DNA of 64,000 nt from a virus. Below the pieces are notes generated by a model. That model ran no database searches. It saw only the letters and a list, made by a program, of their open reading frames with translations, and was not told where the DNA came from. The translations under genes and the position numbers were made by a program. The stretch lies in the IMG/VR virus record IMGVR_UViG_3300017989_000002; one strand, given 5' to 3'. Positions 24,559 through 46,480 of this stretch are shown here, piece by piece; the first letter of the stretch is position 1, and each line of letters begins with the position of its first letter.

Positions 24559-24613
24559 GGGCCCCTCCTGCCGGATCTACCCTATCGCACGCCGTGAAAC
24601 CGTGCCCTGCGGC

Positions 24614-24623
24614 GTCGCATAAG
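24614..24623 (+). promoter_or_regulatory. GTCGCATAAG motif, copy 1
   Basis: Exact 10-mer found 4 times, always intergenic. Confidence 0.65.
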
Positions 24624-25407: not shown

Positions 25408-26129
25408 CAGGTCTTGACCTTGGCGAGAGCCCCCGAGGGCGAGGAAGACACGAGCTTTGGCGGCTTCGGGGCCTTGATCTTCGTGGTCCCGAAGCTGCCC
25501 ACGGACGCCTTGGGTAGAGTGGGCGGCTTCATCTTGACCTTGAAGGAGGGCGTCTTCGGCTTCGCCAGGGGCTTGAGCAGCTTCAGGGCCATCTTCGCGG
25601 CACCCGCCTGCTTGGACATGCCCTGCCGGCGGTAGAACTGGCCTCTGGCGGTGTTGTCCGGGTGAGGGCCCAGCACCCGACGGGTCTGACGGTCCACCAT
25701 CGCGCTCTGGCCGCCGAAGACGTGCCTCGCGCGGGACGCCCGGGCGGCCTCGATGGCGTCCACGAGGTGCTGCGACGGGACGTGGGTCACGCCGGCAGCG
25801 ACCTCGGGCTTGCCCAGCCCGAACATGCGAGACAGGACCTTCGCGTCAGCAAGGTCCGCTCGGCGAGCCATGACCTCTCGGCCCCGGCCTCCCCCCACCG
25901 CGGCAGTGCCGCCGAGCGCCGCCCCCAGCGCAGCGCCCCGGAGCATGCGCCCGATGCGCTCACGAACTTCGGGGCGCGTGAGGTTCCGGCCCTGGACCTG
26001 CCCTGTGTGGTCGCGCCAGAACTGCTCCTCCGAGGGCTCGTAGGTGGCGGCGCCCGTAGCGGCCCCGGCGGCCGCCCCTGGGGCAGCACCGAGAAGGAAC
26101 TCGAGGGCTCGGGCAGCCGCTGGCTTCAT
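25407..26129 (-). CDS. Ala/Gly/Lys-rich putative internal virion protein (MSKQA tag)
   Basis: Gly-zipper helices; MSKQA followed by a Lys/Pro-rich basic tail. Confidence 0.6.
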   Translation of the reverse strand: MKPAAARALEFLLGAAPGAAAGAATGAATYEPSEEQFWRDHTGQVQGRNLTRPEVRERIGRMLRGAALGAALGGTAAVGGGRGREVMARRADLADAKVLSRMFGLGKPEVAAGVTHVPSQHLVDAIEAARASRARHVFGGQSAMVDRQTRRVLGPHPDNTARGQFYRRQGMSKQAGAAKMALKLLKPLAKPKTPSFKVKMKPPTLPKASVGSFGTTKIKAPKPPKLVSSSPSGALAKVKT

Positions 26130-26216
26130 GGGCAGACCTCCGTCGGGATACTAGCGTGGGAGGATGAAATCCGCGAGACGAGCGGCGCACAAGAGCTTGA
26201 GACCCAAGGAGGTTCC

Positions 26217-26915
26217 ATGCGTACCCTGACCATCATCATCCCGGCCGTCCTGCTCACCGGGTGCCTCGCCTCTCGAGGTACCGTCACCGTCGAGGACACC
26301 GGCCCCGAGGCCGCGGACACCTCGGAGGACATCGTCGACACCGGAGGGGCGGACACAGGCCTGCCTGAGGACAGCGACGAGGTCGAGCCGTGGATCATCA
26401 CGGGCGACCTGACCATCGAGAACAGCCGCGACCTCGAAGGCCTGGAGGGGCTCGCCGCAATCAACGGAGACCTGACCGTCCGCAACGTGGACTCCCTCCC
26501 CACGTTGGCAGATCTCCGTCAGGTCCGTGGCATGGTCGCGTTCGAGTTCACGCGCCTGCGGGACCTCGACGACCTGTCCAGCCTCGAGGACGTCGAAGGA
26601 CTGCGCTTCCGCTCGAACGATGACCTGGAGGACATCAGCGGCCTCGACGGCCTGCTGTCCCTCGGCCGCGTCGAGATGACGGACAACGACTCGCTCGAGG
26701 CGTTCTCCGCGGCAGTGCCGGGCCACCTGGACGTCCTCTTGGTGGTCGACAACGATGCTCTACGAGACCTCGGGACGCTGGAGGGCCTCGTCTCCGCCAC
26801 CGACATCCTGGTGACGGACAACGTCGGCCTCTGCCAGACCTACGCGTTCACCGCGTTGGCGGGACTCGCCGACGGCTTCTACGTCATCGAGGACAACGAG
26901 GGCGCCTGCCCTTGA
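26217..26915 (+). CDS. Lipoprotein with receptor L-domain/LRR-like repeats
   Basis: AAGGAGG RBS; lipobox LLTGC; DTG linker; repeats L.I.N...L..L.GL..L. Confidence 0.8.
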   Translation: MRTLTIIIPAVLLTGCLASRGTVTVEDTGPEAADTSEDIVDTGGADTGLPEDSDEVEPWIITGDLTIENSRDLEGLEGLAAINGDLTVRNVDSLPTLADLRQVRGMVAFEFTRLRDLDDLSSLEDVEGLRFRSNDDLEDISGLDGLLSLGRVEMTDNDSLEAFSAAVPGHLDVLLVVDNDALRDLGTLEGLVSATDILVTDNVGLCQTYAFTALAGLADGFYVIEDNEGACP

Positions 26916-26921
26916 GGACGA

Positions 26922-26948
26922 GCGCCGGCAGCAACGTGCTGCCGGCGC
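26922..26948. terminator. 12-bp hairpin between convergent genes
   Basis: gcgccggcagca-acg-tgctgccggcgc. Confidence 0.7.
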
Positions 26949-26971
26949 CTGAGCCTACGTCGCCTTCTTCG

Positions 26972-27949
26972 CTACGCGCCGGCGTACTGACGCAAGACCA
27001 GGCGCACCGCGTCCAGGGACGCCGGGGTCTGGTACCCCGCAGGTCCCGCCCCGATGTCCTCGAGGTCGCCCGTGGCGCAGAACAGCTCGAGGACGTACGC
27101 GTACGCGTACGGAATCAGATCCTGCAGAGGCGAGAAGGTGTGCGAGCTCCCTGCAGAATCGATCTCCAGTAGAACGTCCCGGCTCCCACTCGAAGACACC
27201 CGCACCAAGCGCAGCTTGAGACCTGTGGCCGAGTCGCCCCACTGCGGGTCGATCTCGACGAACTTCCAGTGCGCCGTCGCGTTGTTGAATCCGTCCAGCT
27301 TGTAGAGGATGTGACTCAGGTCGAGGCGAGCATACAGGTCCGTCTTCACCCCCGTGGTGTTCCACTGGATGACCCTCAGAGCACCAGAGGGCACCCAGTC
27401 TGCGGCCATCTGCACGACGATGGGCAAGCCTTCCAGGATGATGGGAAGGATGGGCTGGAAGGCCGACGCTGCGAACATCATCTCCACGTTGACGCCAGGC
27501 GTCGCGCTGCGCCAAGTACCGGACCCGGCGCGGTCGACGCTGACGTTGGTGCTGAGGATGAGGTTCTCGTCGTCCGTCTTCGTGCTCACCGTGAACGGAG
27601 TCTCGTCCCCTTGGATGTAGAAGTAGTCGCCTTCCTCCACATTGGCGAACTGCCCGGAAGGTCCACTGACGTTCGGAGAACCCGACGTGCAGGTCAGGGA
27701 GGAGCCGTCATCCGAGGCCGTCGAGTACTCCGTCCCGAACAGGTCACTGCCCGTGTCGGTTTCCGTGCGCACACCCAGGTGGGGCTGCAGGACTCCTCCT
27801 GAGCGGATGGCGACGTCAGGGAAGCCCTCCCAGGCGTATGCCCCTCGCGCGAACTCCAGAACGCCCAAGCCCTGGACCCGGGTCAGGCGGCTGGAGAATG
27901 CCTTGAAAGACCCGTCCATGAACCTGGAGATGGTGTCGCGAATGCTCAT
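26972..27949 (-). CDS. Virion structural protein
   Basis: Contains the shared beta-module (FANVEEGDYFYI); structural context. Confidence 0.55.
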   Translation of the reverse strand: MSIRDTISRFMDGSFKAFSSRLTRVQGLGVLEFARGAYAWEGFPDVAIRSGGVLQPHLGVRTETDTGSDLFGTEYSTASDDGSSLTCTSGSPNVSGPSGQFANVEEGDYFYIQGDETPFTVSTKTDDENLILSTNVSVDRAGSGTWRSATPGVNVEMMFAASAFQPILPIILEGLPIVVQMAADWVPSGALRVIQWNTTGVKTDLYARLDLSHILYKLDGFNNATAHWKFVEIDPQWGDSATGLKLRLVRVSSSGSRDVLLEIDSAGSSHTFSPLQDLIPYAYAYVLELFCATGDLEDIGAGPAGYQTPASLDAVRLVLRQYAGA

Positions 27950-28245
27950 GTTGCCGCCACGGTGAAGGGATCGGGTACGTCGGACAGTAACGTGAAGAGG
28001 TCAGCCGTGTCCTCCGCAGGAACGTCGAACTCCCGCGACAGTCCGCGCTGCAGGATGGAGACTCGGACACGGATGCCCTGCACCAGGTCGAAGGACACCA
28101 GGCCGGCGTCATCGGACTCGTAGGTCCGCTCCTGGGCAGCGACGGACGTCACCGGCGTCGGAGGCACGTAGACCGAGACACGGACACCCTCGAGGGGTGC
28201 CTCCGCCTGGTCCGTGAACGTGCCGGTGATCGTGCAGGTGGCCAT
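27946..28245 (-). CDS. Small prealbumin-like structural protein, paralogous to the N-terminus of 24769..25407
   Basis: CTITG.F.D....P..GV..SDDAGLV.F.LVQG. Confidence 0.6.
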   Translation of the reverse strand: MATCTITGTFTDQAEAPLEGVRVSVYVPPTPVTSVAAQERTYESDDAGLVSFDLVQGIRVRVSILQRGLSREFDVPAEDTADLFTLLSDVPDPFTVAAT

Positions 28246-28451
28246 CAGGAGCTCAAGACCTCGTTGAGGAGGGCAGACGCATCATCTGCTGCTACCTCTA
28301 CCACGTCTGGAACGACCTGCTGGGTGCCCAGCTTGATGCGGCGCAGCGCGTCCGCATCGGCCTCCACCTCCGCGACCCGGGCCACGCGGTACTCCTCCAG
28401 GGCAGCGACGGTGTCCTGCATCTGCGCGGTGGTCTCGGGAGACAGCGGCAT
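28245..28451 (-). CDS. Small helical hypothetical protein (68 aa)
   Basis: ATG overlaps the sigma-factor stop codon. Confidence 0.55.
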   Translation of the reverse strand: MPLSPETTAQMQDTVAALEEYRVARVAEVEADADALRRIKLGTQQVVPDVVEVAADDASALLNEVLSS

Positions 28452-29236
28452 CACATCCCCCGGCGCTTCATGCGCTCGTCGATCTTGCCCTGGATGCTGT
28501 TCCGGATGCGCGACACCGTGGGCGCGCTCACGCCCATCTTCTTCGCCGTCTGCGTGCCGTTGAGCTGGGGGCGCCCGTACATGCCGTGCTGGTACTCGAA
28601 GACGGTGCGCTCCCGCGGAGAGAGGTCCTGGTAGATGTACCGCATGATCTCGCGCTGGGTTCCGGAGCGCATGTCCTCGAGCTTGTCCGGCTCGGTGGCC
28701 GCCAAGGACTCGATGTGGTCGGCCCGGTTCACGTCGATGCGCATCTTGTCCACGTGAGAGGGGGTCCACTGGTTGGTGGCTCGAAGCCTGCCGGCCTCCG
28801 CGAGGCTGGTGTTCATCCTCTCGGCGATGGTCTGCGTGTCGGGCTCGTGGCCGAGCTCCTCCTCGAGCCCGGAGACGACCTCTCGGAACAGGCCGATCTG
28901 CCTGCTGCGCCGGTAGGGGATGCGCCCGATGTTGGCGTGCTTCGACACGTCGGAGTGCACGCCCTGGAGGTACTTGTAGACCCACGACTTCAGCTGGGTG
29001 TTGTGTCCAGGCTTGTAGGTCTGCAGGCCCTTCATGGCGTGGTGGTGCGCCGCCGCCAGAACCGCGGGCTCCGGGACCGGGCTGGTGCTGTACTTCGACA
29101 CCCGCTGATGGATGAGAGGCCTGATCTGCTCCATGAGCGGGATCAGCTTCTCCTCCGTGGGATCTTCTTTCCACGCCTGCCAGAGCTCGAGGTCTCGCTG
29201 GGCCTGCTGGAGCTTCTCCTTGCGGGACCACGCCAT
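28451..29236 (-). CDS. Phage-encoded sigma-70 family RNA polymerase sigma factor
   Basis: Region 2 (KGLQTYKPGHNTQLKSWV), region 3 (ELGHEPD...IAERM), region 4 HTH (LSPRERTV..AKKMGVSAPTVSRI). Confidence 0.88.
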   Translation of the reverse strand: MAWSRKEKLQQAQRDLELWQAWKEDPTEEKLIPLMEQIRPLIHQRVSKYSTSPVPEPAVLAAAHHHAMKGLQTYKPGHNTQLKSWVYKYLQGVHSDVSKHANIGRIPYRRSRQIGLFREVVSGLEEELGHEPDTQTIAERMNTSLAEAGRLRATNQWTPSHVDKMRIDVNRADHIESLAATEPDKLEDMRSGTQREIMRYIYQDLSPRERTVFEYQHGMYGRPQLNGTQTAKKMGVSAPTVSRIRNSIQGKIDERMKRRGM

Positions 29237-29239
29237 GCG

Positions 29240-29791
29240 TCAGTACCCCATCGACTGCGTCTTCTTGGGACGGGTGCCGAGGTAGAGCGCCCCGAGGCCG
29301 GCTGCGCCGAGACCTACGCCAGCCTTCGTGCGGAACTTGGAGGCCGACGCCTGCTGGGCCTTGGCCTGGGCCTCCTCCTCGGCCTTCTTCTTGGCCGCCT
29401 CGGCGGCCGCCTTGGCCTGGGCCTTCTCGGCGGGCGACTTCATGGCCGAGACGTCCCCGCCTCGACGAGCCCACCGGGCGGCGCCCACGGTGGCAGCAGC
29501 CTCGGCGTTGTCGCCCAGGTTGGCCGCCTGCCGGCGCGCATCGGCCTCGATTCCTCCGACCTCGCTCTTGAACTTCGCGCGCGCGCCCTTGAGCTTCGTC
29601 TTGGCGTTCTTGGCGTCGGTCCACGCCTGGGAGAAGGGGTTCCACCGGCTCATGCCGGCCCCCGCCTTGAACCGGCTGTGCGCAGCCTCCGCTCCCCGGA
29701 GCGCGGCCTGGGCGGAGCGCACCTTGGCGAACGAGGCGCACTTCTCCATCTCTGCGAGGAAGAACGGGGCAGCGTCGGGCGGGACGATCAT
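29240..29791 (-). CDS. Ala/Lys-rich putative internal virion protein (EMEKCA tag)
   Basis: FFLAEMEKCAS; C-terminal hydrophobic Gly-rich helix. Confidence 0.6.
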   Translation of the reverse strand: MIVPPDAAPFFLAEMEKCASFAKVRSAQAALRGAEAAHSRFKAGAGMSRWNPFSQAWTDAKNAKTKLKGARAKFKSEVGGIEADARRQAANLGDNAEAAATVGAARWARRGGDVSAMKSPAEKAQAKAAAEAAKKKAEEEAQAKAQQASASKFRTKAGVGLGAAGLGALYLGTRPKKTQSMGY

Positions 29792-31386
29792 CGGGACCTC
29801 TCTCGGGCCTCCCGCGCCTTGGCGCGGAGCTGGCCTGCAGCAACGAAGGGGAGCGCCAGAGGCGCGGCGTAGGTGGCGAACGCGGGGATCTGCCGGGCCA
29901 GGGAGTGCATGAGCACTTTGCGTCCCGCGCCGGCGACGTCGCCGCCCACACGCTGAAGGTACTGCGCGGCCTTGTAGGAGGCCATCGCCTCCTCCGCGAG
30001 CTTCGGGCTGGCCACCAGGGCCGAGATCTTGCCCATGCTCTCCAGCCACGCCGCGCGCGCCTCAACGTCCTCGGGCGTCGCGAAGTCCTTCTCCGTGGTC
30101 GAGAGGAAGACCGCCAGCGGCAGCAGAGTCGAGGTGAGGGCGGCTGCGCGGTGGGCCTTGAGGGCGGTCTGGCTGCCGATGGTCGCCTGACGTACCCGCC
30201 CTGCCGTCGCGTGCCCGAGCTCGTGAGCGGCTACGCCGGCCGGGGAGTCGGGGGCCAGGAACATCTGCCCGGGCAGCGCCGCCTCGGATCCCTTCTCGCC
30301 CAGGTGGAGCGACACGGCCTTGGAGACCGCCAGCCGGTCGATGCCTTCCCGGAGGAGGATGTCTCGCTTGTCGACGGGCAAGCCTTCCAGGGCCTCGAGC
30401 GCGAGGTGGGGAGCGCCGAGCACCATGCCGAGGACGGCGACGTCCGCGATGCCCGGGCGCTGGGGCGCTACGGGAGGAGCTCCTTGAGCTCCGTCGACGA
30501 TGCCTCGGTACGTCGCCCGACGCATCGGCCCCATGCGCGCCTCCGACGACAGCGTCATCGCCTTCTTCGCTGCGACGTGAGTGGGCTGGGAGCCAGCCCA
30601 CTCGTAGGCGGCCAGATAGGCCCCGTAGGAGTCGCCCATCTGCTCGGCGGCCTTCTTCTCCATGCCCTTCTTCCGGGTGCCCGCCTTGGCGATCTCCTTC
30701 AGGAGCGCCGTGCCGACCACGCCGCCGGCGGCACGTCCGAGGCCCTTGGACATGGCCGCCCGACGTGCTCCCTTGGAGCGCAGGCCCTTGGCCAGCGCGG
30801 ACTCGCCCGCGCCCTCCGCAAGGCCGATGGCGCCGCCCACCGCGTAGGGCTTGACGGCGTCCTTCTTCCGCTGGGACTCGCTCTTGGGCTTGCGGTCCAG
30901 GGACTTGGCGATGGCCTTGGCGGTGAGGAGACCCCCTGCCGCCCCGGTGACCATGCGCGCACCGAACGCGCCCTTCACGGCCTTCCCGACCTGGGGCGAC
31001 CTGATGCCCTTGTCGATCGCCGCCTCGAGGCCGCCCTTGGTGGCGCTGAACGCGGTTCCGGCGCCCACCACCTTGGCTGCGCCTTCCCGCTTCTTCTTCT
31101 TGTCCTTGCTCTGCAGGTCCTCGATGCCCGAGAGGAACATCGGGGTCGTGACGGCCCCTACGCCGAGCCGGCTGATCGACTTCGCCTTCCCGAGACGGAG
31201 AGCGTCCTTGAGGCGGGGCTTCTTGCCCATCGCCGCCTGCTCTGTTCCCCTCTCGATGGCGCCCTTGGGGATGTCGCCGATCGCCTGCGCCGCCGCAAGA
31301 GGCAACGCAGCCACGGCCTTGTGGGCGTAGCTACGCTGCTTCTCTTCAGCGACCTTGACCATCGCTTCCGCTACCGGAAGGGCCAT
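29788..31386 (-). CDS. Virion protein with Gly-zipper helices and a neutral Zn-metallopeptidase domain
   Basis: AAHELGHA..EEAMAS..AFATY (Zn_peptidase_2-like); tags MVKVA and MEKKAA. Confidence 0.7.
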   Translation of the reverse strand: MALPVAEAMVKVAEEKQRSYAHKAVAALPLAAAQAIGDIPKGAIERGTEQAAMGKKPRLKDALRLGKAKSISRLGVGAVTTPMFLSGIEDLQSKDKKKKREGAAKVVGAGTAFSATKGGLEAAIDKGIRSPQVGKAVKGAFGARMVTGAAGGLLTAKAIAKSLDRKPKSESQRKKDAVKPYAVGGAIGLAEGAGESALAKGLRSKGARRAAMSKGLGRAAGGVVGTALLKEIAKAGTRKKGMEKKAAEQMGDSYGAYLAAYEWAGSQPTHVAAKKAMTLSSEARMGPMRRATYRGIVDGAQGAPPVAPQRPGIADVAVLGMVLGAPHLALEALEGLPVDKRDILLREGIDRLAVSKAVSLHLGEKGSEAALPGQMFLAPDSPAGVAAHELGHATAGRVRQATIGSQTALKAHRAAALTSTLLPLAVFLSTTEKDFATPEDVEARAAWLESMGKISALVASPKLAEEAMASYKAAQYLQRVGGDVAGAGRKVLMHSLARQIPAFATYAAPLALPFVAAGQLRAKAREARERSR

Positions 31387-31401
31387 GCGACCCTCCAGGC
31401 A

Positions 31402-32043
31402 TCAGACGCCGAGGCGGTTGTCGACGTTCGGGACGATGGTGAGGGCGGGAGCGTCCGTCCACTCGAAGGCGGCCGCCCACATCCACGCGGTCCAGCCGTC
31501 GTGCACGCCGGTCGAGGCGTCGAGGGCGTTCTGGATCTGCCGGGAGGTGATGGGGGTGGTGTCGCCCGTGGTCGGGGTGCCCAGGACGAGCAGCGCCTTG
31601 TGGGAGATGTTGGCGCCGACGGCGTCGCCCGACCCGTCGCTGTTGGTGTAGATCAGCGCACCAGCCACCTTCTCGCCAGCACCCAGCGTGACGCCACTGG
31701 CATCGGAGCCGTCGAGGTTGATCGGCTGGGACACCTCGCCGCCGGCGGTCAGCATGTCGATGTCGGCGTCGTCGTCGGGAGCCAGGAGGACCCCGACGCC
31801 CTCGACGCGGGCCTGGCCGAGCGAGGAGCTGCTGAAGTCGAAGTGCAGAGCATCGGCGGCGAGGGAGGCACCGGCGGTGAGGCCGGCCACTCCGCCCAGG
31901 ATCTCGGTGCGCGCCGCGTAGGCACGCAGCGTCGCGTCGCGCAGCGCGGCGTCGTTCTTCTTCCAGAAGCCATGAGCGTCGGGATCGAAGCCGACGAGGC
32001 CTCGGAGGGGGTGGTAGCCGTAGGGCGGGGTCGGGCGCGTCAT
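31402..32043 (-). CDS. Hypothetical (possibly structural) protein
   Basis: GAGGAG RBS; own promoter-like motif and structured leader. Confidence 0.6.
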   Translation of the reverse strand: MTRPTPPYGYHPLRGLVGFDPDAHGFWKKNDAALRDATLRAYAARTEILGGVAGLTAGASLAADALHFDFSSSSLGQARVEGVGVLLAPDDDADIDMLTAGGEVSQPINLDGSDASGVTLGAGEKVAGALIYTNSDGSGDAVGANISHKALLVLGTPTTGDTTPITSRQIQNALDASTGVHDGWTAWMWAAAFEWTDAPALTIVPNVDNRLGV

Positions 32044-32130
32044 GAGAATCTCCTCGACGGGAATTGCTGTCCCGCGACCGGGGTGGTCGCGTCGAGACGC
32101 AGGAAGCCTAACGTGAGGAGAGCCCTCGTG

Positions 32131-32496
32131 TCACCTACCGAGGAGCTTGTCCTTCCTCAGGGAGTTAGGCCGCCTGCGTTGCGCTTCGGCCAGGAGAGCT
32201 TCCAGCGACTTGCCGCGCAGACGCATCTTCTCCCTGCCCCGCAGGTTGAAGACGGGGTTGATGCCTCTCGGACGCCGGCCCGCACGCTTCTCCATCCGGT
32301 AGGCGGCGGCCTTCCTCTTCTGCAGCTCGGGAGGCTTCATGATCTGCCCGAGCTTGCCGACCCCGTACGCGGCAGCAGCGGCCGTGCCCAGGCCCGCCCA
32401 CCAGCGAGGCGAGAACTTGGCTGCGGCCGGGATGCGAGGCTTCACCGGCTCCTTGGCCGCGAGCTTCTCCAGCTCCTGGATGTAGGCGTCGTTCAT
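32131..32496 (-). CDS. Basic putative internal virion protein (ELEKLAA and MEKRA tags)
   Basis: MNDAYIQELEKLAA; central hydrophobic helix; YRMEKRAG. Confidence 0.6.
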   Translation of the reverse strand: MNDAYIQELEKLAAKEPVKPRIPAAAKFSPRWWAGLGTAAAAAYGVGKLGQIMKPPELQKRKAAAYRMEKRAGRRPRGINPVFNLRGREKMRLRGKSLEALLAEAQRRRPNSLRKDKLLGR

Positions 32497-34184
32497 GCGG
32501 GCTCCCGGGCGAACATGCGGTGCATGACGCTGTCTCTGTCCTTGGACTCGTGACGCGACCTGCGCTCAAGGACGGCGCGGAGGTCGGTGTTGGCGGACGC
32601 CTTCCGCGCCGCCGTGTTGTAGACGAACTGGTCCGCGCTCTGCGGCGCCTTCTGGAAGGTGATGGTCCGCCAGAAGCCTCGAGGGACCGTGGACACGTAG
32701 CGCCGCACCTTCACGTGCCGCTCGCCGACGGGACGATGAGACTGGCCCCCGGCCCGGATGCCTCGGGCCTGGGCCTGGCTGTTGCGCTCGGGGTTATAGC
32801 TGCCGTCGAGCATGTGCACGGCGGTCGTGTCGCCGAGGGACAGGCCCTCGGCGCCTGCGCCTGTGATGATGATCACCTTCTTCCGGCCTGCCTGGTAGTC
32901 GGTGACGGCCTGCTGCCGGGCCGACTCGGTCATGCCCGGGACGCTCTTGCCGGCGAAGATGCCGAACGGGATGCCCCGAGCACGCAGGCCCGCGCTCACG
33001 ACGTCGACGCCCCCCTTCACGAAGTTCGTGTAGATGATCACCTTGCCGTCCGGCGTGTCCGACAGGTGCTTCACGGTGTCGTCGAGCAGACGCTTCACCT
33101 TGGGCGTCCTCTCCGCCGCCTCCTCGAGGGGCATGGGCATGACGGTGTGGAGGCTGTTGCTCGCCTTCCGGGCCAGCATGAGCCGCGTCAAGACGTTGGT
33201 CTTCTCCTCCCCGGGCAGCAGGCCGGACATCGCACGCTGCTGGGTGCGTGGGTCGATGCCCTTCATCGTGCGTCGGTAGACCTTGAGCTGCTCCCCCGCC
33301 ATCGGGACCTCGACGGTCTCGATGCTCGAGCTGGGCTTGCTGTCCGCGTCCAGGTCCTCGACGTAGTGCACCGACCGGCCGACCAGGGCGGAGAGCTCGC
33401 CCTCCTTCTTGAGCTCGGGGCGCGTGATCTTGCCACCGAAGATGCCCTTCTGGTCCGTCTTCACGTCGCGCACGTGCCGCCGACGGAACTTCTGCCGGTC
33501 GATGGGCTCGCCTCTGGCCAGGGAGAGGAGCGGCGCGATGTCGGCAGGGTCGTTCTGCGAGATGGAGGCGGTGAGGCCCACGAAGCGCGGGATCTGCGAC
33601 CGCACGGCCTCGAACGCCTTGAACCCCTTGCTCTCCGGGTTCGCGACCCGGTGGAACTCGTCGGCCACCACGATGGTCGGCTTCACCGCGTCGATGAAGC
33701 CCTGCGGGTTCTCTCGGAACGCGGCGTAGGAGACTACGGTGTAGTCCACTCCCGGCTTGACCTGCTCGGGGCGGGCCACGATCTGCGAGCTCGATGTCGT
33801 GAACTTCTGGACGCCGCTCGCGTGGAAGTTCTCCCGGAGGCCGGCGGGGGCCACGATGAGGGCACGGGAGCGGTCCTGCGTGCTGCTGCGCTGCTGCTCC
33901 ACCGCCATGACCGCCGAGGGCGTCTTCCCCGTGCCGGTGCCGTGGGCGAGGATGATGCCCCTCCCGGGCTTCAGCGTCTTGATGGTCTTGAGCGCGTCTG
34001 CCTGGTGCTCGTAGGGCTTGATGTTGGGCTTGAGGTTCCCGTCCACCCAGGTCTTGCCCCGGACCTTGTTGCCGGTCTGGTCGTGTCCGGTCTCTCCAGG
34101 CTCCAGCTGACGCCAGTGGCCGGCACGGGCGACCTTCGTGAGGTCCCCGTCGGTGCTGTACGAGCCGGCTGGCGTGACGATCAT
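32493..34184 (-). CDS. SF2 (SNF2-like) helicase
   Basis: YEHQ, HGTGTGKT, DEFH, TAS, GAEGLSL, QAQARGIR motifs; ATG at 34184 overlaps the hub stop codon. Confidence 0.88.
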   Translation of the reverse strand: MIVTPAGSYSTDGDLTKVARAGHWRQLEPGETGHDQTGNKVRGKTWVDGNLKPNIKPYEHQADALKTIKTLKPGRGIILAHGTGTGKTPSAVMAVEQQRSSTQDRSRALIVAPAGLRENFHASGVQKFTTSSSQIVARPEQVKPGVDYTVVSYAAFRENPQGFIDAVKPTIVVADEFHRVANPESKGFKAFEAVRSQIPRFVGLTASISQNDPADIAPLLSLARGEPIDRQKFRRRHVRDVKTDQKGIFGGKITRPELKKEGELSALVGRSVHYVEDLDADSKPSSSIETVEVPMAGEQLKVYRRTMKGIDPRTQQRAMSGLLPGEEKTNVLTRLMLARKASNSLHTVMPMPLEEAAERTPKVKRLLDDTVKHLSDTPDGKVIIYTNFVKGGVDVVSAGLRARGIPFGIFAGKSVPGMTESARQQAVTDYQAGRKKVIIITGAGAEGLSLGDTTAVHMLDGSYNPERNSQAQARGIRAGGQSHRPVGERHVKVRRYVSTVPRGFWRTITFQKAPQSADQFVYNTAARKASANTDLRAVLERRSRHESKDRDSVMHRMFAREPA

Positions 34185-36526
34185 CCCAACCCCCGGAGCT
34201 CCAGGCTCTTCACGTAGTCCTGCACGCACTGACGCCGGATCAGCCCGCTCTCCTGCAGATTGTAACTGGCATCGACCTCGTGCTCGACCGCAGTCTCCGT
34301 GGTGGACTGGGCGTCGTACTGCAGGTCCCGGTCCGAGGGGCCGATGGTCTTCCCGTTCGCGTCCACGATGGTCTCGCCGGCGGGGAGGGTGCGCCGGACC
34401 TTCACCGTCTTCCTCGTCCGGGTGGTGAAGTCGACGCCCTTGTACCCGTCCCCGCCGCCGTCGGCCGCGGGCTTGGCCGCGAAGGAGCCGGGGTCGAAGG
34501 CAGAGGACAGGAACCCTTCCGCCGGGATCCCCTCCTCGTCGTAGACGTCGGTCAGGTCGAGGTCGGTGTCGTTGGCGGAGTCGGTGGCGTCCGGGTGACC
34601 CAGGACCTCCACGAGGGATGCCTTGGGCCTCCAGGTGACCTCCTGGGCCATGCTGCGCAGGTCCCCGCCCTCGGCGTTCTGGAGACGCCAGGCGATCTCC
34701 AGAGCCCAGATGGCGCGGCGAAGCGGGTGCTTGTCGCCGTCGATGTCCTTCCAGAACTTGTCGCCTCCCACGACGAGAGGAACGTTGGCCTCCGCGGCCT
34801 CGGTGTCGACCTGGTCCGCAAGGCGCTCCCCGAGGTCGTACAGGCTCTCGCACCCGAGCAGCAGGTCGTAGACCTCGGCACCTACGCGCTTGACGTCGTA
34901 CCGGTCGTCCAGGAACCCGTCGGTGCCTCTGTCGACCAGGGTCGACAGCGATCGGTAGTCCGCCCCCGTCCCGTCGTCCGACAGCGTGGAAGCATCGGAG
35001 TCGAAGTCGAGGACCTCCGTGTGGTGCCTGGCGTGGGTGATGGTCCCCTGCGTGATGCCCCCGCGCTGGTCGATCATGTGCACCACGGTGTGCATGTGCC
35101 CGAAGATGTGCTTGGCCATGTGCAGGGGCGAGTAGACGTCAGACATCAGGACGGCCGGGAAGCCCGGCACGAGGTTGAGGTTCAGCGGCCCCGTGAAGCT
35201 CATGGTGCGGCGAGCGAAGCGGCCCAGCCAGAAGCTGTAGTCCGCCAGCTTCGACAGGTAGTCGCGGCGAGGGCCCTTCGCGACGTAGGCGCTGAGGTCG
35301 TCCTGCCAGTGCTCCACCGGGTTGAGCCCGGTCCACCGCTCGTGAGGGAGTACGGTCGTCGCCATGCGCTCGAGGAAGGACCCGTTCTTCGCGTTGACGG
35401 TCATGCCGTCGAGGGAGTCGAAGTCCGGGGCGTAGAAGCGCTCGGTGAGCCACTTGTTGGGTGCCCCGTTCAGCAGCAAGCTGGTGCGGACGAACATCCG
35501 GGTGGGCTCGTTCAGGAAGTCCCGGTTGTGCGAGACGATGTTGTACTGGTTCGGGAAGACGATGTTGCAGACCGGAGGCGCCATGAAGGGCGCGTGCGGC
35601 ACGATCGCCGTGTAGTTGAGGGTGGCGTCGGCCCACCCGTCGTCGCGCTTGATGAGACGACGCGACAGCGCGGAGCCGTCGTCCGGGTCGTAGCCCCGGG
35701 CACGGCCCTCCTTGTCCAGGTAGGGGAACGGGATCCCAACGGTGTCGTGGAACACCGTGCCCAGCATCATGCGCATCATCTGGGCCAGCGTGTAGGCTCC
35801 GCCGCCTCCGCCGACCCGGTTGGACAGGTACTTCTGGAAGAAGTCGAGCTTGAACAGCTTGGCCGCGGTCTCGTCCTGCGGCACGCCCACGACCAGGTCG
35901 CCGTAGCGCCAACGGTTGAAGGCTCCGCCGTACCAGTCGTTGGCGGCGAACCACATCTCCCGGAGCGTCCGATGGACGCCCAGGTAGAGGTTGTCGTTGC
36001 CCTCCGCGTTCTCGCTCTTCGAGAGCCAGTTGAACAGGTTGGAGTGCAGGTCCTTGCCGGCGACGTCGAAGGACTTGGCCTTGTCGGGCGAGACGCCTCG
36101 GAAGGCCAGCTCGATGAGCTCGATGCCGCCGTTGCGGAAGTTGACGTAGTGCTGCTTGATGAAGTCCCAGTAGTTGTCCGGGGCCAGGAACACGAGGGTC
36201 ACGTCCCGCTGACCGGGCTGCTTCTGGAAGTTGACGCCGGCGAGCTCGCCCAGGAACCCGCACTTGTAGTTGCGGAGGTCCGCCAGCGTGAGGTTCGCGC
36301 GCTCCTTCTGGGTGCCTCCCTCGTAAGAGTGCCCCCTCCTGTCGTCATCGAAGACGCAGACGGCGACAGCGGTGCGCGGCTTCAGGTCGAAGATGGGGTC
36401 CGTCGCGACCAGGCGCACCTCGCAGGCGATGGGGACGCCCGCGGTGGCGACGATCCGGGCACCGATGGCCGGCACCTCGACGCCCTCGAGGAAGACGCGC
36501 AGGTTCAGGTAGGCGGCAGAGCTCAC
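34181..36526 (-). CDS. Baseplate hub-like protein (gp27/gp44 class)
   Basis: LRVFLEGVEVP N-terminus, GPLNLNLVPGFP..V.H motif; lies two genes after the tape measure. Confidence 0.6.
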   Translation of the reverse strand: MSSAAYLNLRVFLEGVEVPAIGARIVATAGVPIACEVRLVATDPIFDLKPRTAVAVCVFDDDRRGHSYEGGTQKERANLTLADLRNYKCGFLGELAGVNFQKQPGQRDVTLVFLAPDNYWDFIKQHYVNFRNGGIELIELAFRGVSPDKAKSFDVAGKDLHSNLFNWLSKSENAEGNDNLYLGVHRTLREMWFAANDWYGGAFNRWRYGDLVVGVPQDETAAKLFKLDFFQKYLSNRVGGGGGAYTLAQMMRMMLGTVFHDTVGIPFPYLDKEGRARGYDPDDGSALSRRLIKRDDGWADATLNYTAIVPHAPFMAPPVCNIVFPNQYNIVSHNRDFLNEPTRMFVRTSLLLNGAPNKWLTERFYAPDFDSLDGMTVNAKNGSFLERMATTVLPHERWTGLNPVEHWQDDLSAYVAKGPRRDYLSKLADYSFWLGRFARRTMSFTGPLNLNLVPGFPAVLMSDVYSPLHMAKHIFGHMHTVVHMIDQRGGITQGTITHARHHTEVLDFDSDASTLSDDGTGADYRSLSTLVDRGTDGFLDDRYDVKRVGAEVYDLLLGCESLYDLGERLADQVDTEAAEANVPLVVGGDKFWKDIDGDKHPLRRAIWALEIAWRLQNAEGGDLRSMAQEVTWRPKASLVEVLGHPDATDSANDTDLDLTDVYDEEGIPAEGFLSSAFDPGSFAAKPAADGGGDGYKGVDFTTRTRKTVKVRRTLPAGETIVDANGKTIGPSDRDLQYDAQSTTETAVEHEVDASYNLQESGLIRRQCVQDYVKSLELRGLG

Positions 36527-37437
36527 TGGTCACTTCGCAGGAGGGCGCCGCCCGGGACGCGCGCGCTTCCTCCGTAGAACGCCTGCCGCCGGTACAGGAG
36601 AGACTCCCGCATGAGGCGCTCCTCGCCGAGCTCCTCGAACCACGCCTGGACGCGCTGCATGGCGTCGGAGGCGGTCAAGGCGAAGGGGGTGCCGGTGAGC
36701 CGCTGGGGGTCGAAGGGACTCGACTGCCCGGTGATCGGGTCGATGAAGTACAGCTTCTCGACCTCGAGAGGGGCCTCGATGTAGTCCACGTACAAGGAAT
36801 CGCCCACGAGCCTCGTGTTCTCGACGGAGCGGACGACAGCGTTTCCGACGTCCACGTGGCTGAAGACCAGCATCTTGAAGCTGAACTGGCAGACGTGAGG
36901 GAGCTTGGAGTCGTCCGCCACGCTCGTGCCGAAGACGTACCCGGAGTACAGCTGGTCATCGACGCTGAGGTAGACCCTCGTGCGGTTCTGAACGCACCGG
37001 GTGCCGCGCAGGTAGTTCCGGTAGTTCGAGAGCCACTCCTGCTTCCAGGAGAAGTCCGCGGTGTTCATCAGGAGGCCCTGAACCTGCAGGACCAGCGGGC
37101 GCTCACCGAAGAAGAACACGAAGTCCTCGCCGAAGGTCTCGACGATCTGCATCTTCTCGGACTCGACGTGGCTCACCTGGGTGAGGAGGAAGTTGTGGTT
37201 GTGGTTGGACCACCCCTTCCCTTCGACCGCAGGTCCGGCCTGATCTGGCATGGAGACGGGGACGAGGTTCCCCTCCGCACCGGACTGGCGCAGGGACAGG
37301 GAGGCGAACCTGTCGGCCTTCGGCACGTAGCCGTACAGCGGACGGCGCACGCCACGCGAGTCCTTCTTCTTGAAGAGGCTGACGACCTCCGGAAGGCTCT
37401 GCTCGAACGGGTCAGTGCGGTACAGGATGGTGCTCAC
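36523..37437 (-). CDS. Tail tube initiator-like protein
   Basis: EKMQIVETFGEDFVFFFGERP..L.VQG.L..FSF tube-like fold pattern; position after the tape measure. Confidence 0.55.
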   Translation of the reverse strand: MSTILYRTDPFEQSLPEVVSLFKKKDSRGVRRPLYGYVPKADRFASLSLRQSGAEGNLVPVSMPDQAGPAVEGKGWSNHNHNFLLTQVSHVESEKMQIVETFGEDFVFFFGERPLVLQVQGLLMNTADFSWKQEWLSNYRNYLRGTRCVQNRTRVYLSVDDQLYSGYVFGTSVADDSKLPHVCQFSFKMLVFSHVDVGNAVVRSVENTRLVGDSLYVDYIEAPLEVEKLYFIDPITGQSSPFDPQRLTGTPFALTASDAMQRVQAWFEELGEERLMRESLLYRRQAFYGGSARVPGGALLRSDQ

Positions 37438-37637
37438 TTGGGCTCCACGACGGTCCGACGGAGGTCAGTGGGGACCGGGTCGGGGGCGATGTCTCGGCCG
37501 AACCAGACGTTCGCAGCCTCGATGCGGACCAGGTGGTCCATGAGGCGCAGCTCGCCCACGCGGTCGTACTCCGCCACCCGGAGGATGCCCTCCTCGTTGA
37601 CGACGCCCCGATCGCTGATCTTGTTGGACTCTGCCAT
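37434..37637 (-). CDS. Small hypothetical protein
   Basis: GAGGAGG RBS; coupled to the next gene. Confidence 0.55.
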   Translation of the reverse strand: MAESNKISDRGVVNEEGILRVAEYDRVGELRLMDHLVRIEAANVWFGRDIAPDPVPTDLRRTVVEPK

Positions 37638-37652
37638 GCCACCCTCCTCGGA

Positions 37653-40600
37653 CTACTTGAGCACCGTGTTCGCTCCGACGACCTCGTCGCCGTAGGTGTC
37701 CATCTGCATCTCCTTGCCCACTCCGGTCGACTTGAACGCGGTGAGGAAGGCGTCGACGGCAACCACGAACTCGGTCTGGCGCTTCCAGACGTCGGACTCC
37801 ATGCCCTCCACGGTGGTTCGGCCGCCCTTCCCCGTCCCCGTGCCGTTGTCGTACATGGCGGGCGAGAAGTCGCCGCGTGCCATGAGGTCGCCGACCACCT
37901 GGTCTGCGCTCTTTCCCATCGCCGCCGCGATGTCCTGATCGCTGTACCCGAACTCCTTGAGCTTCGCTGCACGCGTCTTCTCGTCGATGACGCTGTTGAT
38001 GTCGCTGGCCATGCCGAGAGTCCCCAGCTGACCGCCCGAGATGTCGAAGAGGCTCTTCTTCTCCTCCGCGCTGATCCCGCCGGCGGCTACCTGCTTGAGC
38101 ACTCCCTCCCAGGCCGCGACGTACTCCTCGCGCGTGCCCCCGCTCGATGCCTTGCCGAGTGCCCGCACCGCGTCGCCGGCGGCGCCGAACTCGCGGTCGA
38201 TCATCGGGTCGCCGCTGCCCTCCACCCACCTCTGGTAGGCGTTCTTGGTGATGGACTTGCTCTGGTCGGTGAGCCGCTGGTACTCGAGCGACGCGCCGAC
38301 ATCGAACAGGCGTGCGGCGCCGGCCCTGGCCTTCGTGCGGGCATCCCCGGTGAGGGACGAGTAGTGCCCCACCAGCTGCTGGGCCTGGGTCAGGGCCTGC
38401 CCTGTCATCCCGGAGGCCCCGAGGCCCTTCAGCGCCTTCTCCATCGCGTCCTGGTCCAGGTTCTCGGAGAGCGCGACTTCCATCGCCTTCCCGAAGGCTT
38501 CCCTCTGCACGCCGCTCTTCTCGGTGGCGAGCTTGAGCTCGTCAGCGGTGTTCCCGTAGAAATTCCCCGCGACAGGGCTGCCCCAGGCGGAGGCGAGCTT
38601 GTCGAACTCCTCGCCGTAGGCCTTCCTCGCCGCAGCAGAGTCCGTCCGGTAGGCGGTCTTCCTCCCGACCCCGAGCTTGTCGTACTCCTTGCCGTGTGCA
38701 GTTCCGCGCAGCGCGCGCGAGATCGCCCCCTCGTACTGCGCCTTCTCCTCTCCGGGGAGGCGGGAGTAGGCCTCGGGCGTGCTGGGCAGCCCGGCCTTCA
38801 GAGGGTCGTCCTCGAGCGCGTTCACGTAGTCCCACGTCGCGGTGTCCCGCGCGCTGGGCCCTCCGAACCCGAACATCGTCCCGAGGCCGAACGGTCCGGA
38901 CATGCTCATGTCGGTGGTGCGGCTCCGGGCCACCACGTCGTCCAGGCGGTGCGTCGTGGACAGGTTCCGCAGCCCTGCCGCCGCCTGACCGGACACGTCC
39001 CGGCTGTTGCGCCCGAAGCGCGCCTGGAAGTCGAGGTCGGCGACGTTCTTCGGGGCGAACTGGTTGCCCGAGACCTGGGAGTACTCCCTGCCCGACTTGT
39101 CGTAGACGCGTCCCTGGACCGACATCAGGTCCGAGTTCTGCGAGAAGTAGGAGCCTCCGCCCATCACCGAGTCGACCATCGCCTGGTTGCCTGTCACGGC
39201 GTAGTCGCTGTACTCGTCCAGGAACCTCTCGTTCATGCTGGGGGCCGCGAAGAGAGCACGGCTGCGAGCCGTCCCGGCACCTCGAGGGCCCTCGAACATC
39301 GCACCGCGTCGCAGGTAGCCCTGCGACGTGCCGCCCATGCTGACCTCGTTCCTTCCGCTCCACCAGGATCCCCAGGAGGCTGCCTGCTGGTCCATCTCTT
39401 CGCCGACCCGGGCACCCATGTACCGGGCGGGGTCCGAGATGTTGTCCTTCCACGCGCCCTTCGTCCTGGCGATGATGCTGTACTGCTTGGCGACCCGGTC
39501 GAACTCCGCTTCCTGCTGCATGCGCATGGACTCGTTGCGCTGCTCGCGCAGCACGTTGCCCATGTTCAGGCTCTGGTCGAGCAGGAGGCCCGCCTCCTCT
39601 CGGCCGAGGCCCTGGTGCATCAGGCCGCGGATGAGGCCCTTCCGGTCCGTCGACATGCCGAGCTGTCCGCGCTCTGCGCGCGCCGAGTTCACCATCGCCA
39701 TGCCGGCGTACTGCATGAAGTTCTCTTGGGCCTCGCGTCCCCCCGTGGCCTGCAGCGTTCCGAGCCCGCGGTTGACGGCCCGGGTCACGAGCTGCTCTAG
39801 GCTGGAGTTGCCTCCGACGACGCTCGTCAGGCGTCCGACGTCCATCTCCGAGCCCGACCCCATCGCGTTGGCCATCATCATCCGGCCGCGCGCGCCCTTG
39901 AGGAAGCGCATCTGGGCCTGCCCGAGGCGTGCTGCCACTGCCTCGGGGCCTCCGGCCTCCATGACGGCCTCTTCCGAGATGCTGCCGTTCCGCATGCCGA
40001 GGTCGACAGATGCCTGGACGTTCTGCATGAACTCGGCGCCGAAGCGGCCGCGCATGCCGTAGCGTCGTGCGGTCTGGGCACCGTAGGCCCCCATCGCCGC
40101 CACCTGGGAGGGATCGCGTCCGGTCGCCGCCGCCAACGCGCCCTGCTTGAGGGCCTGGGCGCCCACGTCGGCGGCCTGGTAGAAGCCCTGCTGGCGGATC
40201 TGGCTGAAGGTCTGCGTCGCGTCCTCGATGGACGTCTGCATCTCCTTCGCGATGGTCTTGATGGTCGACAGCGCCTTGTCGAACTTCTCCTTGAACTCCT
40301 TCGTGCCCGAGACCGACTTGAAGTAGCCCTGGTCGTCCAGGTAGCGGGTGATCTCGCGCACGGTCCCGCTGTCGGTCCCGAGGCTACGTGCCGCGGACCG
40401 GAACTGCTGCTGCATTCCCACAGCCATACCGTTGGTCGGGTCCACCTGACGTCCGAACATCGAGCCGCTGCGCTGGGCCAGCAGCATCTTCGTGTCCTGG
40501 TACGCCTGCTGACCGTCCCGCATGTTGGACAGATACGAGCTGGCGGCGAAGGCCCCCGCCCCCATGATCGCGCCGACGCCGGTGACGCCCATGGCGCCGC

Positions 40601-41054
40601 CCACCAAGCCACCCATGACGCCGCGCGCGCCCGCGCTTAGCATCCCGGCCCCGACCTGCCTCCCTGCAGCCCACGAGCCTGCCCGGAACCCCGCGCCGCC
40701 CGCCTTCATGACGTACGTGAAGGGGTCGATCGCATCGAGGGCTCGCGCGAACCCGACCATGCCGGGGCGGCCCATCGAGGTGCCGATCCCGCGGAACAGG
40801 GGTGCCGCAGCACCGCCCAGCATGACGCCCGTCCCGATGGCGCCCGGGGCTGTGCTGGTCAAGAAGTTGGCTGCGGCACCGCCGCCTAGCGCGCCGAGCT
40901 GGGCCTGCGACGACCTCTGGTCCGCAGACCGCTGGTTGTTCGGGGCGAAGAAGCCGGCCGAGCCAAGTCCCGCCTGGAAGAAGCCAGGCGTGCTGAAGCC
41001 CATGCCCGGCGCGGGCATGGTAGATCCTGGAGTCGCGTAGCCGCCGTTGTTCAT
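37653..41054 (-). CDS. Tape measure protein
   Basis: 1133 aa, helical, Ala/Gly/Met/Gln-rich with Gly-rich hydrophobic segments; precedes tube initiator and hub. Confidence 0.75.
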   Translation of the reverse strand: MNNGGYATPGSTMPAPGMGFSTPGFFQAGLGSAGFFAPNNQRSADQRSSQAQLGALGGGAAANFLTSTAPGAIGTGVMLGGAAAPLFRGIGTSMGRPGMVGFARALDAIDPFTYVMKAGGAGFRAGSWAAGRQVGAGMLSAGARGVMGGLVGGAMGVTGVGAIMGAGAFAASSYLSNMRDGQQAYQDTKMLLAQRSGSMFGRQVDPTNGMAVGMQQQFRSAARSLGTDSGTVREITRYLDDQGYFKSVSGTKEFKEKFDKALSTIKTIAKEMQTSIEDATQTFSQIRQQGFYQAADVGAQALKQGALAAATGRDPSQVAAMGAYGAQTARRYGMRGRFGAEFMQNVQASVDLGMRNGSISEEAVMEAGGPEAVAARLGQAQMRFLKGARGRMMMANAMGSGSEMDVGRLTSVVGGNSSLEQLVTRAVNRGLGTLQATGGREAQENFMQYAGMAMVNSARAERGQLGMSTDRKGLIRGLMHQGLGREEAGLLLDQSLNMGNVLREQRNESMRMQQEAEFDRVAKQYSIIARTKGAWKDNISDPARYMGARVGEEMDQQAASWGSWWSGRNEVSMGGTSQGYLRRGAMFEGPRGAGTARSRALFAAPSMNERFLDEYSDYAVTGNQAMVDSVMGGGSYFSQNSDLMSVQGRVYDKSGREYSQVSGNQFAPKNVADLDFQARFGRNSRDVSGQAAAGLRNLSTTHRLDDVVARSRTTDMSMSGPFGLGTMFGFGGPSARDTATWDYVNALEDDPLKAGLPSTPEAYSRLPGEEKAQYEGAISRALRGTAHGKEYDKLGVGRKTAYRTDSAAARKAYGEEFDKLASAWGSPVAGNFYGNTADELKLATEKSGVQREAFGKAMEVALSENLDQDAMEKALKGLGASGMTGQALTQAQQLVGHYSSLTGDARTKARAGAARLFDVGASLEYQRLTDQSKSITKNAYQRWVEGSGDPMIDREFGAAGDAVRALGKASSGGTREEYVAAWEGVLKQVAAGGISAEEKKSLFDISGGQLGTLGMASDINSVIDEKTRAAKLKEFGYSDQDIAAAMGKSADQVVGDLMARGDFSPAMYDNGTGTGKGGRTTVEGMESDVWKRQTEFVVAVDAFLTAFKSTGVGKEMQMDTYGDEVVGANTVLK

Positions 41055-41071
41055 GGACGACTACTACCACG

Positions 41072-41284
41072 TCAAGAGGATGGCGGTCCCTTCAGGTCCC
41101 AGTAGAGGAACCCACGCAGCATCTCACGCTCGAAGGGAGCGAGACCTTCCCCGTCCTGGGTCCGCAGGAAGGCGCTGTACGCGTCGAGGTGCGGGTCGAT
41201 GACATCCTTGAGGATCTGCTCAGGGGTCAGGCCTGCGATGTCCGTCGAGGACAACGAGCTTCCCTTGCTTGGGCTCTCCGACAT
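41072..41284 (-). CDS. Small hypothetical protein
   Basis: ORF directly upstream of the tape measure. Confidence 0.5.
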   Translation of the reverse strand: MSESPSKGSSLSSTDIAGLTPEQILKDVIDPHLDAYSAFLRTQDGEGLAPFEREMLRGFLYWDLKGPPSS

Positions 41285-42094: not shown

Positions 42095-42108
42095 CAGGAG
42101 ATCCTCCG

Positions 42109-43807: not shown

Positions 43808-43817
43808 TGCGCTCTCC

Positions 43818-44045: not shown

Positions 44046-44075
44046 GGAGCCTGTATGCCCCACTCCTACCGAGGC

Positions 44076-44081
44076 TGTCAA
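44076..44081 (-). promoter_or_regulatory. Consensus sigma-70 -35 box (TTGACA) upstream of the HTH gene
   Basis: TTGACA, 18 nt, CATACA, then ATG 44045; the -10 is weak. Confidence 0.45.
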
Positions 44082-46468: not shown

Positions 46469-46480
46469 GAGGAGCTCCAG

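Follow-up and report, generated by a model that had tools for sequence, protein, structure and literature searches.

A stretch of 64,000 nucleotides of DNA from a large, uncultured marine phage (IMG/VR virus record IMGVR_UViG_3300017989_000002), referred to throughout as the window, encodes a sigma-70-family factor and an SNF2-family helicase inside a block of virion structural genes, with a third enzyme-like protein carrying an HExxH motif encoded between them. We consider it probable, at about 0.6, that these genes belong to an RNA polymerase–sigma set that is delivered from the virion together with accessory cargo. The sigma would be the subunit that confers promoter specificity on the bacterial-type RNA polymerase encoded by the phage itself, and the SNF2 ATPase a companion of that polymerase. 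Both would be made late, become part of the particle and pass into the next host along with the DNA. There the pre-made set would start transcription at the CGCATAAG-class promoters that head plus-strand non-structural units, with no wait for the host polymerase or for new protein synthesis. The stretch between the baseplate hub and sigma genes would have gained a cargo cluster in this sub-lineage (helicase, small basic proteins and HExxH enzyme), and short N-terminal leaders with the pattern hydrophobic-x-K-x-A (KxA), in many cases with a GHWR module or a Gly/Lys-rich domain after them, are probably sorting or cleavage signals for incorporation into the particle. The proposal is built on gene identities, operon layout, synteny, co-occurrence with RNA polymerase, cysteine-free composition and shared leaders. 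The DNA datasets containing the window are marine sediment and seawater metagenomes.

Sigma factor, helicase and hub in one gene array

Because the window has ~67% G+C, reading frames were picked by third-position G+C (GC3) together with translation. The minus strand from 26972 to 43924 forms a single array in which the genes mostly overlap or lie 3–17 nt apart. The only gaps of more than 20 nt are one of 87 nt (32044–32130) and two, of 207 nt and 73 nt, further upstream, and no minus-strand terminator-like sites were found between 26000 and 45000. In the direction of transcription the genes encode proteins of 1133, 67, 304, 781 (hub), 563 (SNF2), 121, 213, 532 (HExxH), 183, 261 (sigma), 68, 99 and 325 amino acids (aa). 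A previous reading from sequence only (the sequence-only reading) had placed the sigma factor, the helicase and a Zn-peptidase within the structural block, and the gene calls and identities of the array bear this out. The couplings that it described are also present. The start codon of the helicase overlaps the stop codon of the hub gene (ATGA), the helicase has the KxA tag ascribed to it, and the sigma ATG lies 3 nt behind the 183-aa gene, which is itself KxA-tagged (MEKCA). The link from sigma to the downstream structural genes runs via a 68-codon gene (GTGATG overlap) whose stop overlaps the start codon of the 99-aa gene. Since the sigma and helicase genes are in virion structural operons, both proteins are probably made late.

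On the evidence of sequence profiles and a predicted model, the 261-aa protein is a sigma-70-family factor, for which core binding and promoter initiation are predicted. It matches phrog_351 (E 6e-11), and its own Pfam match is weak. A family profile of nine relatives aligns with the solved RpoS, SigA, RpoD and FliA (E 1e-9) over residues 68–257, from region 2.2 to region 4.2. Within sigma2, regions 2.2–2.4 align with RpoS/RpoD, with GRIP opposite IRLP at the 2.4/3.0 border. The Pfam model Sigma70_r2 matched neither the sigma nor the family members; Sigma70_r3 was matched in eight of nine members (best E 4e-7) and Sigma70_r4 in three. The AlphaFold model (predicted local distance difference test, pLDDT, 76) matches full-length sigma chains with a probability of 1.0. 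The domains present are thus sigma2, sigma3 and sigma4, without region 1.1, a leader or any cysteine. Membership of SigB/F/G or of FliA/WhiG (group 3) was rejected, as TIGR02980 scores 38.8 bits against a cut-off of 234 and TIGR02479 34.2 against 190; with scores so far below these cut-offs the protein belongs to a separate phage family of the same architecture. This family has 151 representatives at E ≤ 1e-30. A scan of viral contigs with the single sigma sequence gave no match, and the family profile gave three loci, in the contigs L004–L006. In cultured phages the sigma matches gp10 of Salmonella phage Arash (E 8e-16 with the single sequence, 3e-26 by family profile).

The 68-codon gene that overlaps the sigma stop, absent from the list used for the sequence-only reading, is strongly acidic (13 Asp+Glu against 5 Lys+Arg), and small genes overlap the sigma stop at the equivalent position in L004 (61 aa) and L006 (68 aa). 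Its product might act together with the sigma, as an anti-sigma, as a chaperone or in place of region 1.1. On the other side, the 183-aa gene and sigma are in one frame with TGA-CGC alone between them (29234–29242, −), and one family member, P0175, is a 436-aa sigma with a tagged, Gly-rich N-terminus. A read-through fusion of the two window genes was considered and rejected, since there is no similarity to the N-terminal part of P0175 and the layout is not kept in L004.

The 563-aa protein scores above the Pfam cut-offs for both halves of the helicase (PF00176 SNF2-rel_dom, 39.2 bits against 24.9; PF00271 Helicase_C, 44.1 against 23.5) and matches phrog_62 at E 2.8e-49. Motifs I, II, III and VI are conserved as GTGKT, DEFH, TAS and ARGIR. 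It is 28% identical to Arash gp217 (E 2e-40), and among solved structures the Sulfolobus Rad54-like SNF2 protein 1z63 is nearest to it. A second helicase of the window, Dda-like, is encoded among the replication genes. One homologue of the SNF2 protein (L028:4651–7584, +) has a long intein/homing-endonuclease-like insert directly after ATPase motif I.

The gene to which the helicase is coupled encodes a 781-aa protein with no family match by sequence and no tblastn match in cultured phages. An AlphaFold2 model was built from 29 homologues (the family has 54) and reached a pLDDT of 77 and a predicted template-modelling score of 0.80. Foldseek matched it to Mu gp44, T4 gp27, the MuSo2 tail protein and the VgrG hubs of extracellular contractile injection systems and type VI secretion systems (probability 1.0, E 1.6e-10), with target-normalised template-modelling (TM) scores of 0.63 for Mu gp44 and 0.52 for T4 gp27. 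From these matches to known hubs, the label of baseplate hub given by the sequence-only reading is correct. By hhalign, that is at the profile level only, the protein is related to Arash gp8 (probability 95%, E 2e-8). Downstream of the sigma, the 99-aa protein has relatives in L004–L006 and an 866-aa protein matches the baseplate wedge family phrog_6.

Conserved position, RNA polymerase and the virions of Arash

Arash (OQ632216.1) is the closest cultured-phage record, found via its sigma gp10 and helicase gp217. Its genes run gp4 (1097 aa), gp5 (69 aa), gp6, gp7, gp8 (a hub with hydrolase), gp9, gp10 (sigma), gp11, gp12, gp13 and gp14 (baseplate wedge), and window proteins match gp6, gp10, gp13 and gp14 directly. 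The three contigs L004–L006 have the exact order of the window, helicase and HExxH protein included. In six more distant contigs and in Vibrio phage D69, the sigma again lies between hub-side and wedge-side genes. The order tape-measure-like protein, gp6-like protein, hub, sigma, gp13–gp14 wedge is kept, in whole or in part, in Arash, D69, L004–L006 and six further contigs, and relatives of gp4 and gp6 stand in equal order in L093. D69 (L101, L102; OZ195729.1; 186.7 kb) combines the hub–sigma–wedge order with an RNA polymerase, and its sigma and polymerase genes are annotated as hypothetical in the stretches read; Vibrio phages D181 and D148 give a sigma match identical to that of D69.

The co-occurrence of sigma, helicase and RNA polymerase was read from the sequences of the relatives rather than from the window. 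Each of L004–L006 has a fused beta-beta' frame of 2040–2065 aa. The polymerase gene of the relatives comes after a portal-like gene (the name comes from two relatives only, through position, size and a likeness at the N-terminus, with no family match) and is followed at once by a gp5-like spike gene, which overlaps the polymerase end. In L010 this overlapping gene (14388–15959, +) encodes a T4 gp5-like spike with Gp5_C repeats. Among 17 contigs chosen only for the helicase, RNA polymerase is found in 13 and the sigma in 8, and both are found in each of the four contigs with a completeness of 90% or more; the four contigs that have no polymerase are fragments, 14–54% complete. Wherever this sigma family was found, Arash and D69 included, the genome encodes beta/beta' as well. 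The helicase gene is itself close to the polymerase in several of these genomes: in Arash it overlaps the stop codon of beta', in L018 it comes after the fused polymerase gene, in L032 it also adjoins the polymerase, and in L019 and L028 it lies within ~4 kb of it.

Particle proteins are known from Arash, whose virions were purified on sucrose gradients and analysed by mass spectrometry (PMC10585845). The beta subunit gp206 gave 3516 spectra, beta' gp216 1210, the helicase gp217 1148 and the sigma gp10 467, with 38 unique peptides for gp217 and 24 for gp10, the latter covering 100% of its 234 aa (PMC10585845). Corrected for gene length, these spectra are about equal per residue (beta 2.3, beta' 2.0, helicase 2.4, sigma 2.0). 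Metabolic enzymes in the same preparation, among them obvious contaminants such as ribonucleotide reductase, ligase and primase, have 2–11 unique peptides, against 24–128 for the four transcription proteins, and gp4 and gp6 were also detected (PMC10585845). Presence of the sigma and the helicase in particles is thus shown in Arash only, the one relative with virion mass spectrometry (the paper on cyanophage PA-SR01 has none). The Arash paper lists the proteins and offers no mechanism (PMC10585845).

Leaders, cysteine content, promoter-like boxes and neighbouring genes

The KxA motif is enriched 3.3-fold in the first 30 residues of the window proteins (p = 0.011) and 5.8-fold in those of the sigma family (41 of 157 proteins, 26%; p = 6e-19), although these statistics, like those for cysteine below, count related sequences, so that the p-values overstate independence, and the database start codons are uncertain. 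Orthologues have the variants ELTKIA, ELMKSA and FQKLA. The N-terminus of the window's helicase is 58% identical over 40 residues (E 4e-13) to that of a sigma-family protein, P0069. The module that they share, GHWR...GKTWV, is 35 residues long and is found on sigmas of four lineages (P0069, P0077, P0079 and P0164) and on the helicases of L004–L006. P0077, P0079 and P0164 start only 3–5 residues before GHWR, near the point where a cut after K-x-A would fall, which in the window's helicase is 2 residues before GHWR. A second module, the Gly/Lys-rich part of the HExxH protein, is homologous to an extension fused to the helicases of L015 (E 1e-9) and L023 (E 4e-13); within the window it has no paralogue. 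The L015 helicase has the motif MAKVA shortly before the helicase core, downstream of the Gly/Lys extension. We argue from this exchange of N-terminal modules among sigma, helicase and peptidase that the three have a common destination. Separately from these modules, a domain of ~90 residues (...WVG[HY]S.G..RLRFAP...) is common to the N-terminal extensions of sigma P0171 and the helicase at L015:4690–7890, and other sigmas have further, unrelated extensions of 40–200 residues.

The six proteins from helicase to sigma contain one cysteine in 1873 residues, against ~13 expected from the mean cysteine content of the window, 0.70% (Poisson P ~3e-5), and this lone cysteine is in the leader of the 183-aa protein. 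Cysteine is absent from 135 of 149 sigma-family representatives (0.041% Cys overall), from all five aligned helicases and from 12 of 14 others, including those of Arash and PA-SR01. The 1133-aa tape-measure-like protein and the HExxH protein also have none; the hub of the window has six and hubs in general 2–11. That the constraint is kept so broadly suggests that these proteins are exposed outside the cytoplasm or pass through the tail.

Four exact copies of GTCGCATAAG and one variant head plus-strand units, and a (C/T)GNTAGNNT box precedes several minus-strand units, among them that of the sigma. This last box, ACGTTAGGCT, sits in the 87-nt gap, the only sizeable one between hub and sigma, and TGCTACnnT is found at the equivalent place in L004 and L006. 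The wider pattern RYGNTAGNNT is not enriched across the window (8 found, 8.1 expected); five of the eight matches, all on the minus strand, fall in the gap immediately before the start of a gene on that strand, with a sixth, at 61081–61090, outside this positional count. No consensus sigma-70 promoter was found in 26000–45000. Only the positions of the motif are suggestive, and the box in the 87-nt gap is a candidate for an internal promoter of the unit with the sigma gene. Elsewhere, a TAGNNT-type or other −10-like box stands back to back with the reverse complement of the CGCATAAG box, at 24579–24623 in the window, at L010:8230–8280 and at L011:7560–7610; in L011 and L010 the pair is just upstream of the polymerase gene.

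The identity of the 532-aa protein is the weakest of the calls made here. It has an N-terminal KxA (MVKVA), the Gly/Lys-rich module at residues ~19–230 and a C-terminal HExxH domain at ~300–532. HE[LI]GH, and LAEE ~73 residues downstream of it, are invariant in five orthologues, and an Atlas model resembles the Zn_peptidase_2 family at a TM of 0.58, which is a structural lead. The Pfam score for that family (PF04298) is 15.9 bits against a cut-off of 27, there is no sequence match in PDB, PHROG or NCBIfam, and a word-based search returned two close relatives only. The Zn-peptidase of the sequence-only reading therefore stands as a putative one, on its motifs, with the family assignment falling short of the cut-off. 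The domain is confined to this sub-lineage (three of 23 genomes). A role for the enzyme as the protease of the KxA leaders was rejected for this reason, and also because the domain is absent from G014, a contig 94% complete whose helicase has a KxA-like FKIA. Arash gp218, considered as a relative, is unrelated. The 121-aa protein is 25% Lys+Arg and 24% Gly+Ala, and the gene at its position in L004, equivalent by position, starts ...ELEKIA.

Positions of the features of the sigma–helicase array in the window
Feature	Coordinates	Strand	Basis
Upstream structural genes: 1133-aa tape-measure-like, 67-aa and 304-aa (related to Arash gp6) proteins	36523–41054	−	order and sizes as Arash gp4–gp5–gp6
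Hub, 781 aa	34181–36526	−	fold match; N-terminus homologous to Arash gp8
SNF2-family ATPase/helicase, 563 aa, cysteine-free	32493–34184	−	Pfam and phrog_62
Helicase N-terminal leader: KxA (LTKVA, residues 15–19), then GHWR...GKTWV module (residues 21–48)	34041–34142	−	58% identity to P0069
Basic protein, 121 aa, N-terminal LEKLA, coupled to helicase	32131–32496	−	composition and leader motif
ACGTTAGGCT, extended −10-like box, candidate internal promoter	32105–32114	−	position in 87-nt gap
213-aa protein, cysteine-free	31402–32043	−	weak DUF4232 match; orthologues at same position in L004–L006
Two-domain HExxH protein, 532 aa	29788–31386	−	motifs; weak Zn_peptidase_2 match
Basic Gly/Ala-rich protein, 183 aa, leader MIVPP...MEKCA	29240–29791	−	composition and leader; sole Cys within leader
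Sigma-70-family factor, 261 aa	28451–29236	−	phrog_351, family profile, AlphaFold model
Acidic gene, 68 codons, overlapping sigma stop	28245–28454	−	overlap; similar small genes in L004, L006
99-aa beta-sandwich-like and 325-aa proteins, coupled; probable tail/baseplate parts	26972–28245	−	weak CarboxypepD_reg match

At the upstream end of the array, the longest-ORF (open reading frame) starts of 42109–42690 and 42764–43924 (−) give Arg-/Cys-rich N-termini that resemble out-of-gene extensions (8 Cys in 193 aa), and the true starts are probably further downstream. Flanking non-structural units encode an endolysin/amidase-like protein (45542–46498, −), the Dda-like helicase (52517–53734, +) and a Cas4-like exonuclease (27–1337, +).

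Alternative readings and comparison with known systems

Several observations weigh against a virion-delivered polymerase–sigma set. Vibrio phage D69 has polymerase and sigma and no detectable helicase, and in cyanophage PA-SR01 the helicase gene is part of the head module and there is neither polymerase nor sigma. The helicase was rejected as a member of RapA/HepA, with no RapA chain among its PDB matches and no RapA model among its NCBIfam matches. The Arash virion list is long, 116 of 252 proteins, and its authors allow for carry-over of abundant enzymes (PMC10585845). As the sigma of the window is without a leader and gp217 of Arash without an N-terminal extension, a leader cannot be the sole route into particles, and the leader and cysteine statistics are subject to the shared ancestry mentioned above. 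For the window, DNA datasets are listed and no RNA runs. That the sigma would pair with the phage core rather than that of the host we infer from their co-occurrence.

Some of these points favour a different account of the cargo, in which helicase, HExxH protein and small basic proteins are cargo injected as effectors or for the handling of DNA, act independently of transcription (possible roles are anti-restriction, nucleoid remodelling, DNA pulling and envelope digestion), and share with the sigma nothing but packaging. D69 and PA-SR01, in which helicase and sigma occur apart, the lack of RapA-like features and the narrow distribution of the HExxH domain all fit with it, and phiKZ particles contain a predicted helicase (PMC7598289, PMC13282480). 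Set against this are the genetic contact of helicase and polymerase in Arash and L018, the density of helicase spectra in Arash virions, close to that of the polymerase subunits and the sigma, and the swapping of the GHWR module between helicase and sigma. We regard this account as unlikely, though as the strongest of the alternatives.

A second alternative is that the sigma is a late or auto-regulatory factor that stays unpackaged and sustains late transcription with the phage or host core, its detection in Arash being carry-over. The late-type operon does lie behind a −10-like box that differs from the CGCATAAG class, and both the missing leader of the window's sigma and the breadth of the Arash proteome, where carry-over is raised by the authors themselves (PMC10585845), would agree with this. 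However, an operon needing its own sigma cannot be started by that sigma, the 24 unique peptides and complete coverage of gp10 are far above known contaminants, and the near-total absence of cysteine and a leader on a quarter of the family would be unexpected for a purely cytoplasmic regulator. We think it doubtful, and less probable than independent cargo.

The sequence-only reading had proposed a late-expressed sigma that is either a positive-feedback late activator, which it may yet be, or is packaged and injected with the helicase and redirects the polymerase of the host, in place of a virion RNA polymerase. The first half of this second branch agrees with the late-type structural operon, the Arash proteome, the cysteine-free composition and the shared leaders; the second half, which has a precedent in the jumbo phages without a polymerase that use their own sigma homologues with the host core (PMC7598289, PMC13282480), is very improbable given the beta-beta' frames of L004–L006, the polymerase found with the helicase in most contigs and with this sigma family in every genome, and the place of beta/beta' among the most heavily detected proteins of the Arash virion preparation.

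We thus return to delivery of a polymerase–sigma set from the virion. In its most general form, for which we would give slightly less than even odds, a clade of 150–190-kb phages delivers a beta-beta' core, a true sigma-70-family factor and usually an SNF2 motor from the virion. A transferable leader would load the cargo: its hydrophobic-x-K-x-A boundary would precede either a GHWR module for docking or a Gly/Lys carrier, and evolution would have moved this leader between sigma, helicase and metallopeptidase. If true, this would be the first virion RNA polymerase using a canonical sigma, together with a new protein-sorting code for phage particles. A literature search found no paper describing a virion polymerase with a sigma-70-family factor. 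The kept position of the sigma across distant relatives, the lack of cysteine in sigma, helicase and peptidase both in the window and throughout their families, the KxA leader and the swaps of the GHWR and Gly/Lys modules are new in this analysis.

A functional precedent is that of phiKZ- and AR9-like jumbo phages, in which a beta/beta'-type enzyme is packaged and injected and early transcription is independent of the host; phiKZ particles also contain a predicted helicase and protease (PMC7598289, PMC13282480). According to reviews, polymerase-encoding jumbo phages have no sigma homologues and those without a polymerase have a sigma that is used with the host core (PMC7598289, PMC13282480). 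The clade described here bridges this two-group split, since polymerase and sigma are both present, with the sigma fixed among the baseplate genes over deep divergence. The virion enzymes of phiKZ and AR9 differ in having no sigma-70 homologue; phiKZ gp68 and AR9 gp226 show no sequence relationship and are part of the non-virion enzymes. Should the particle indeed carry the sigma, the well-understood sigma-70 framework could be used to study how an injected enzyme recognises promoters.

Phage N4 carries a single-subunit polymerase, a T7-like domain in a 3500-aa protein that uses hairpin promoters and no sigma. The likeness is in the logic of a late-made, capsid-carried polymerase that is ejected to transcribe the early genes, with late genes that may fall to another polymerase. 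T4 gp55/gp33, SPO1 gp28 and gp33/34, and phiEco32 gp36 are made early or in the middle of infection and act on the host core. They resemble the present sigma as phage-encoded sigma-70-family proteins that change promoter choice; they are not known as particle components or as encoded among baseplate genes. The SNF2-family ATPase, genetically tied to RNA polymerase, recalls RapA/HepA as a plausible working analogy, although it has neither the RapA-specific domains nor RapA among its best matches.

Short N-terminal leaders common to unrelated ejected cargo are found on the T4 internal proteins (the capsid-targeting sequence) and on the phiKZ head proteins cut by the prohead protease. The putative signal here is hydrophobic-x-K-x-A, not LxE or S/A/G-x-E, and leaders that can be exchanged would offer a way into the sorting of non-structural enzymes to the virion. 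The closest system remains Arash itself, with its homologous sigma and helicase and its gp6-, gp8-, gp13- and gp14-like proteins ordered alike around the sigma. It differs in its split polymerase, in a helicase coupled to beta', in having only a 96-aa gene between hub and sigma, and in the absence of KxA/GHWR leaders and of the HExxH and Gly/Lys cargo proteins. With cultured members in Arash and Vibrio phages D69, D181 and D148, the question of a virion-borne sigma is directly testable.

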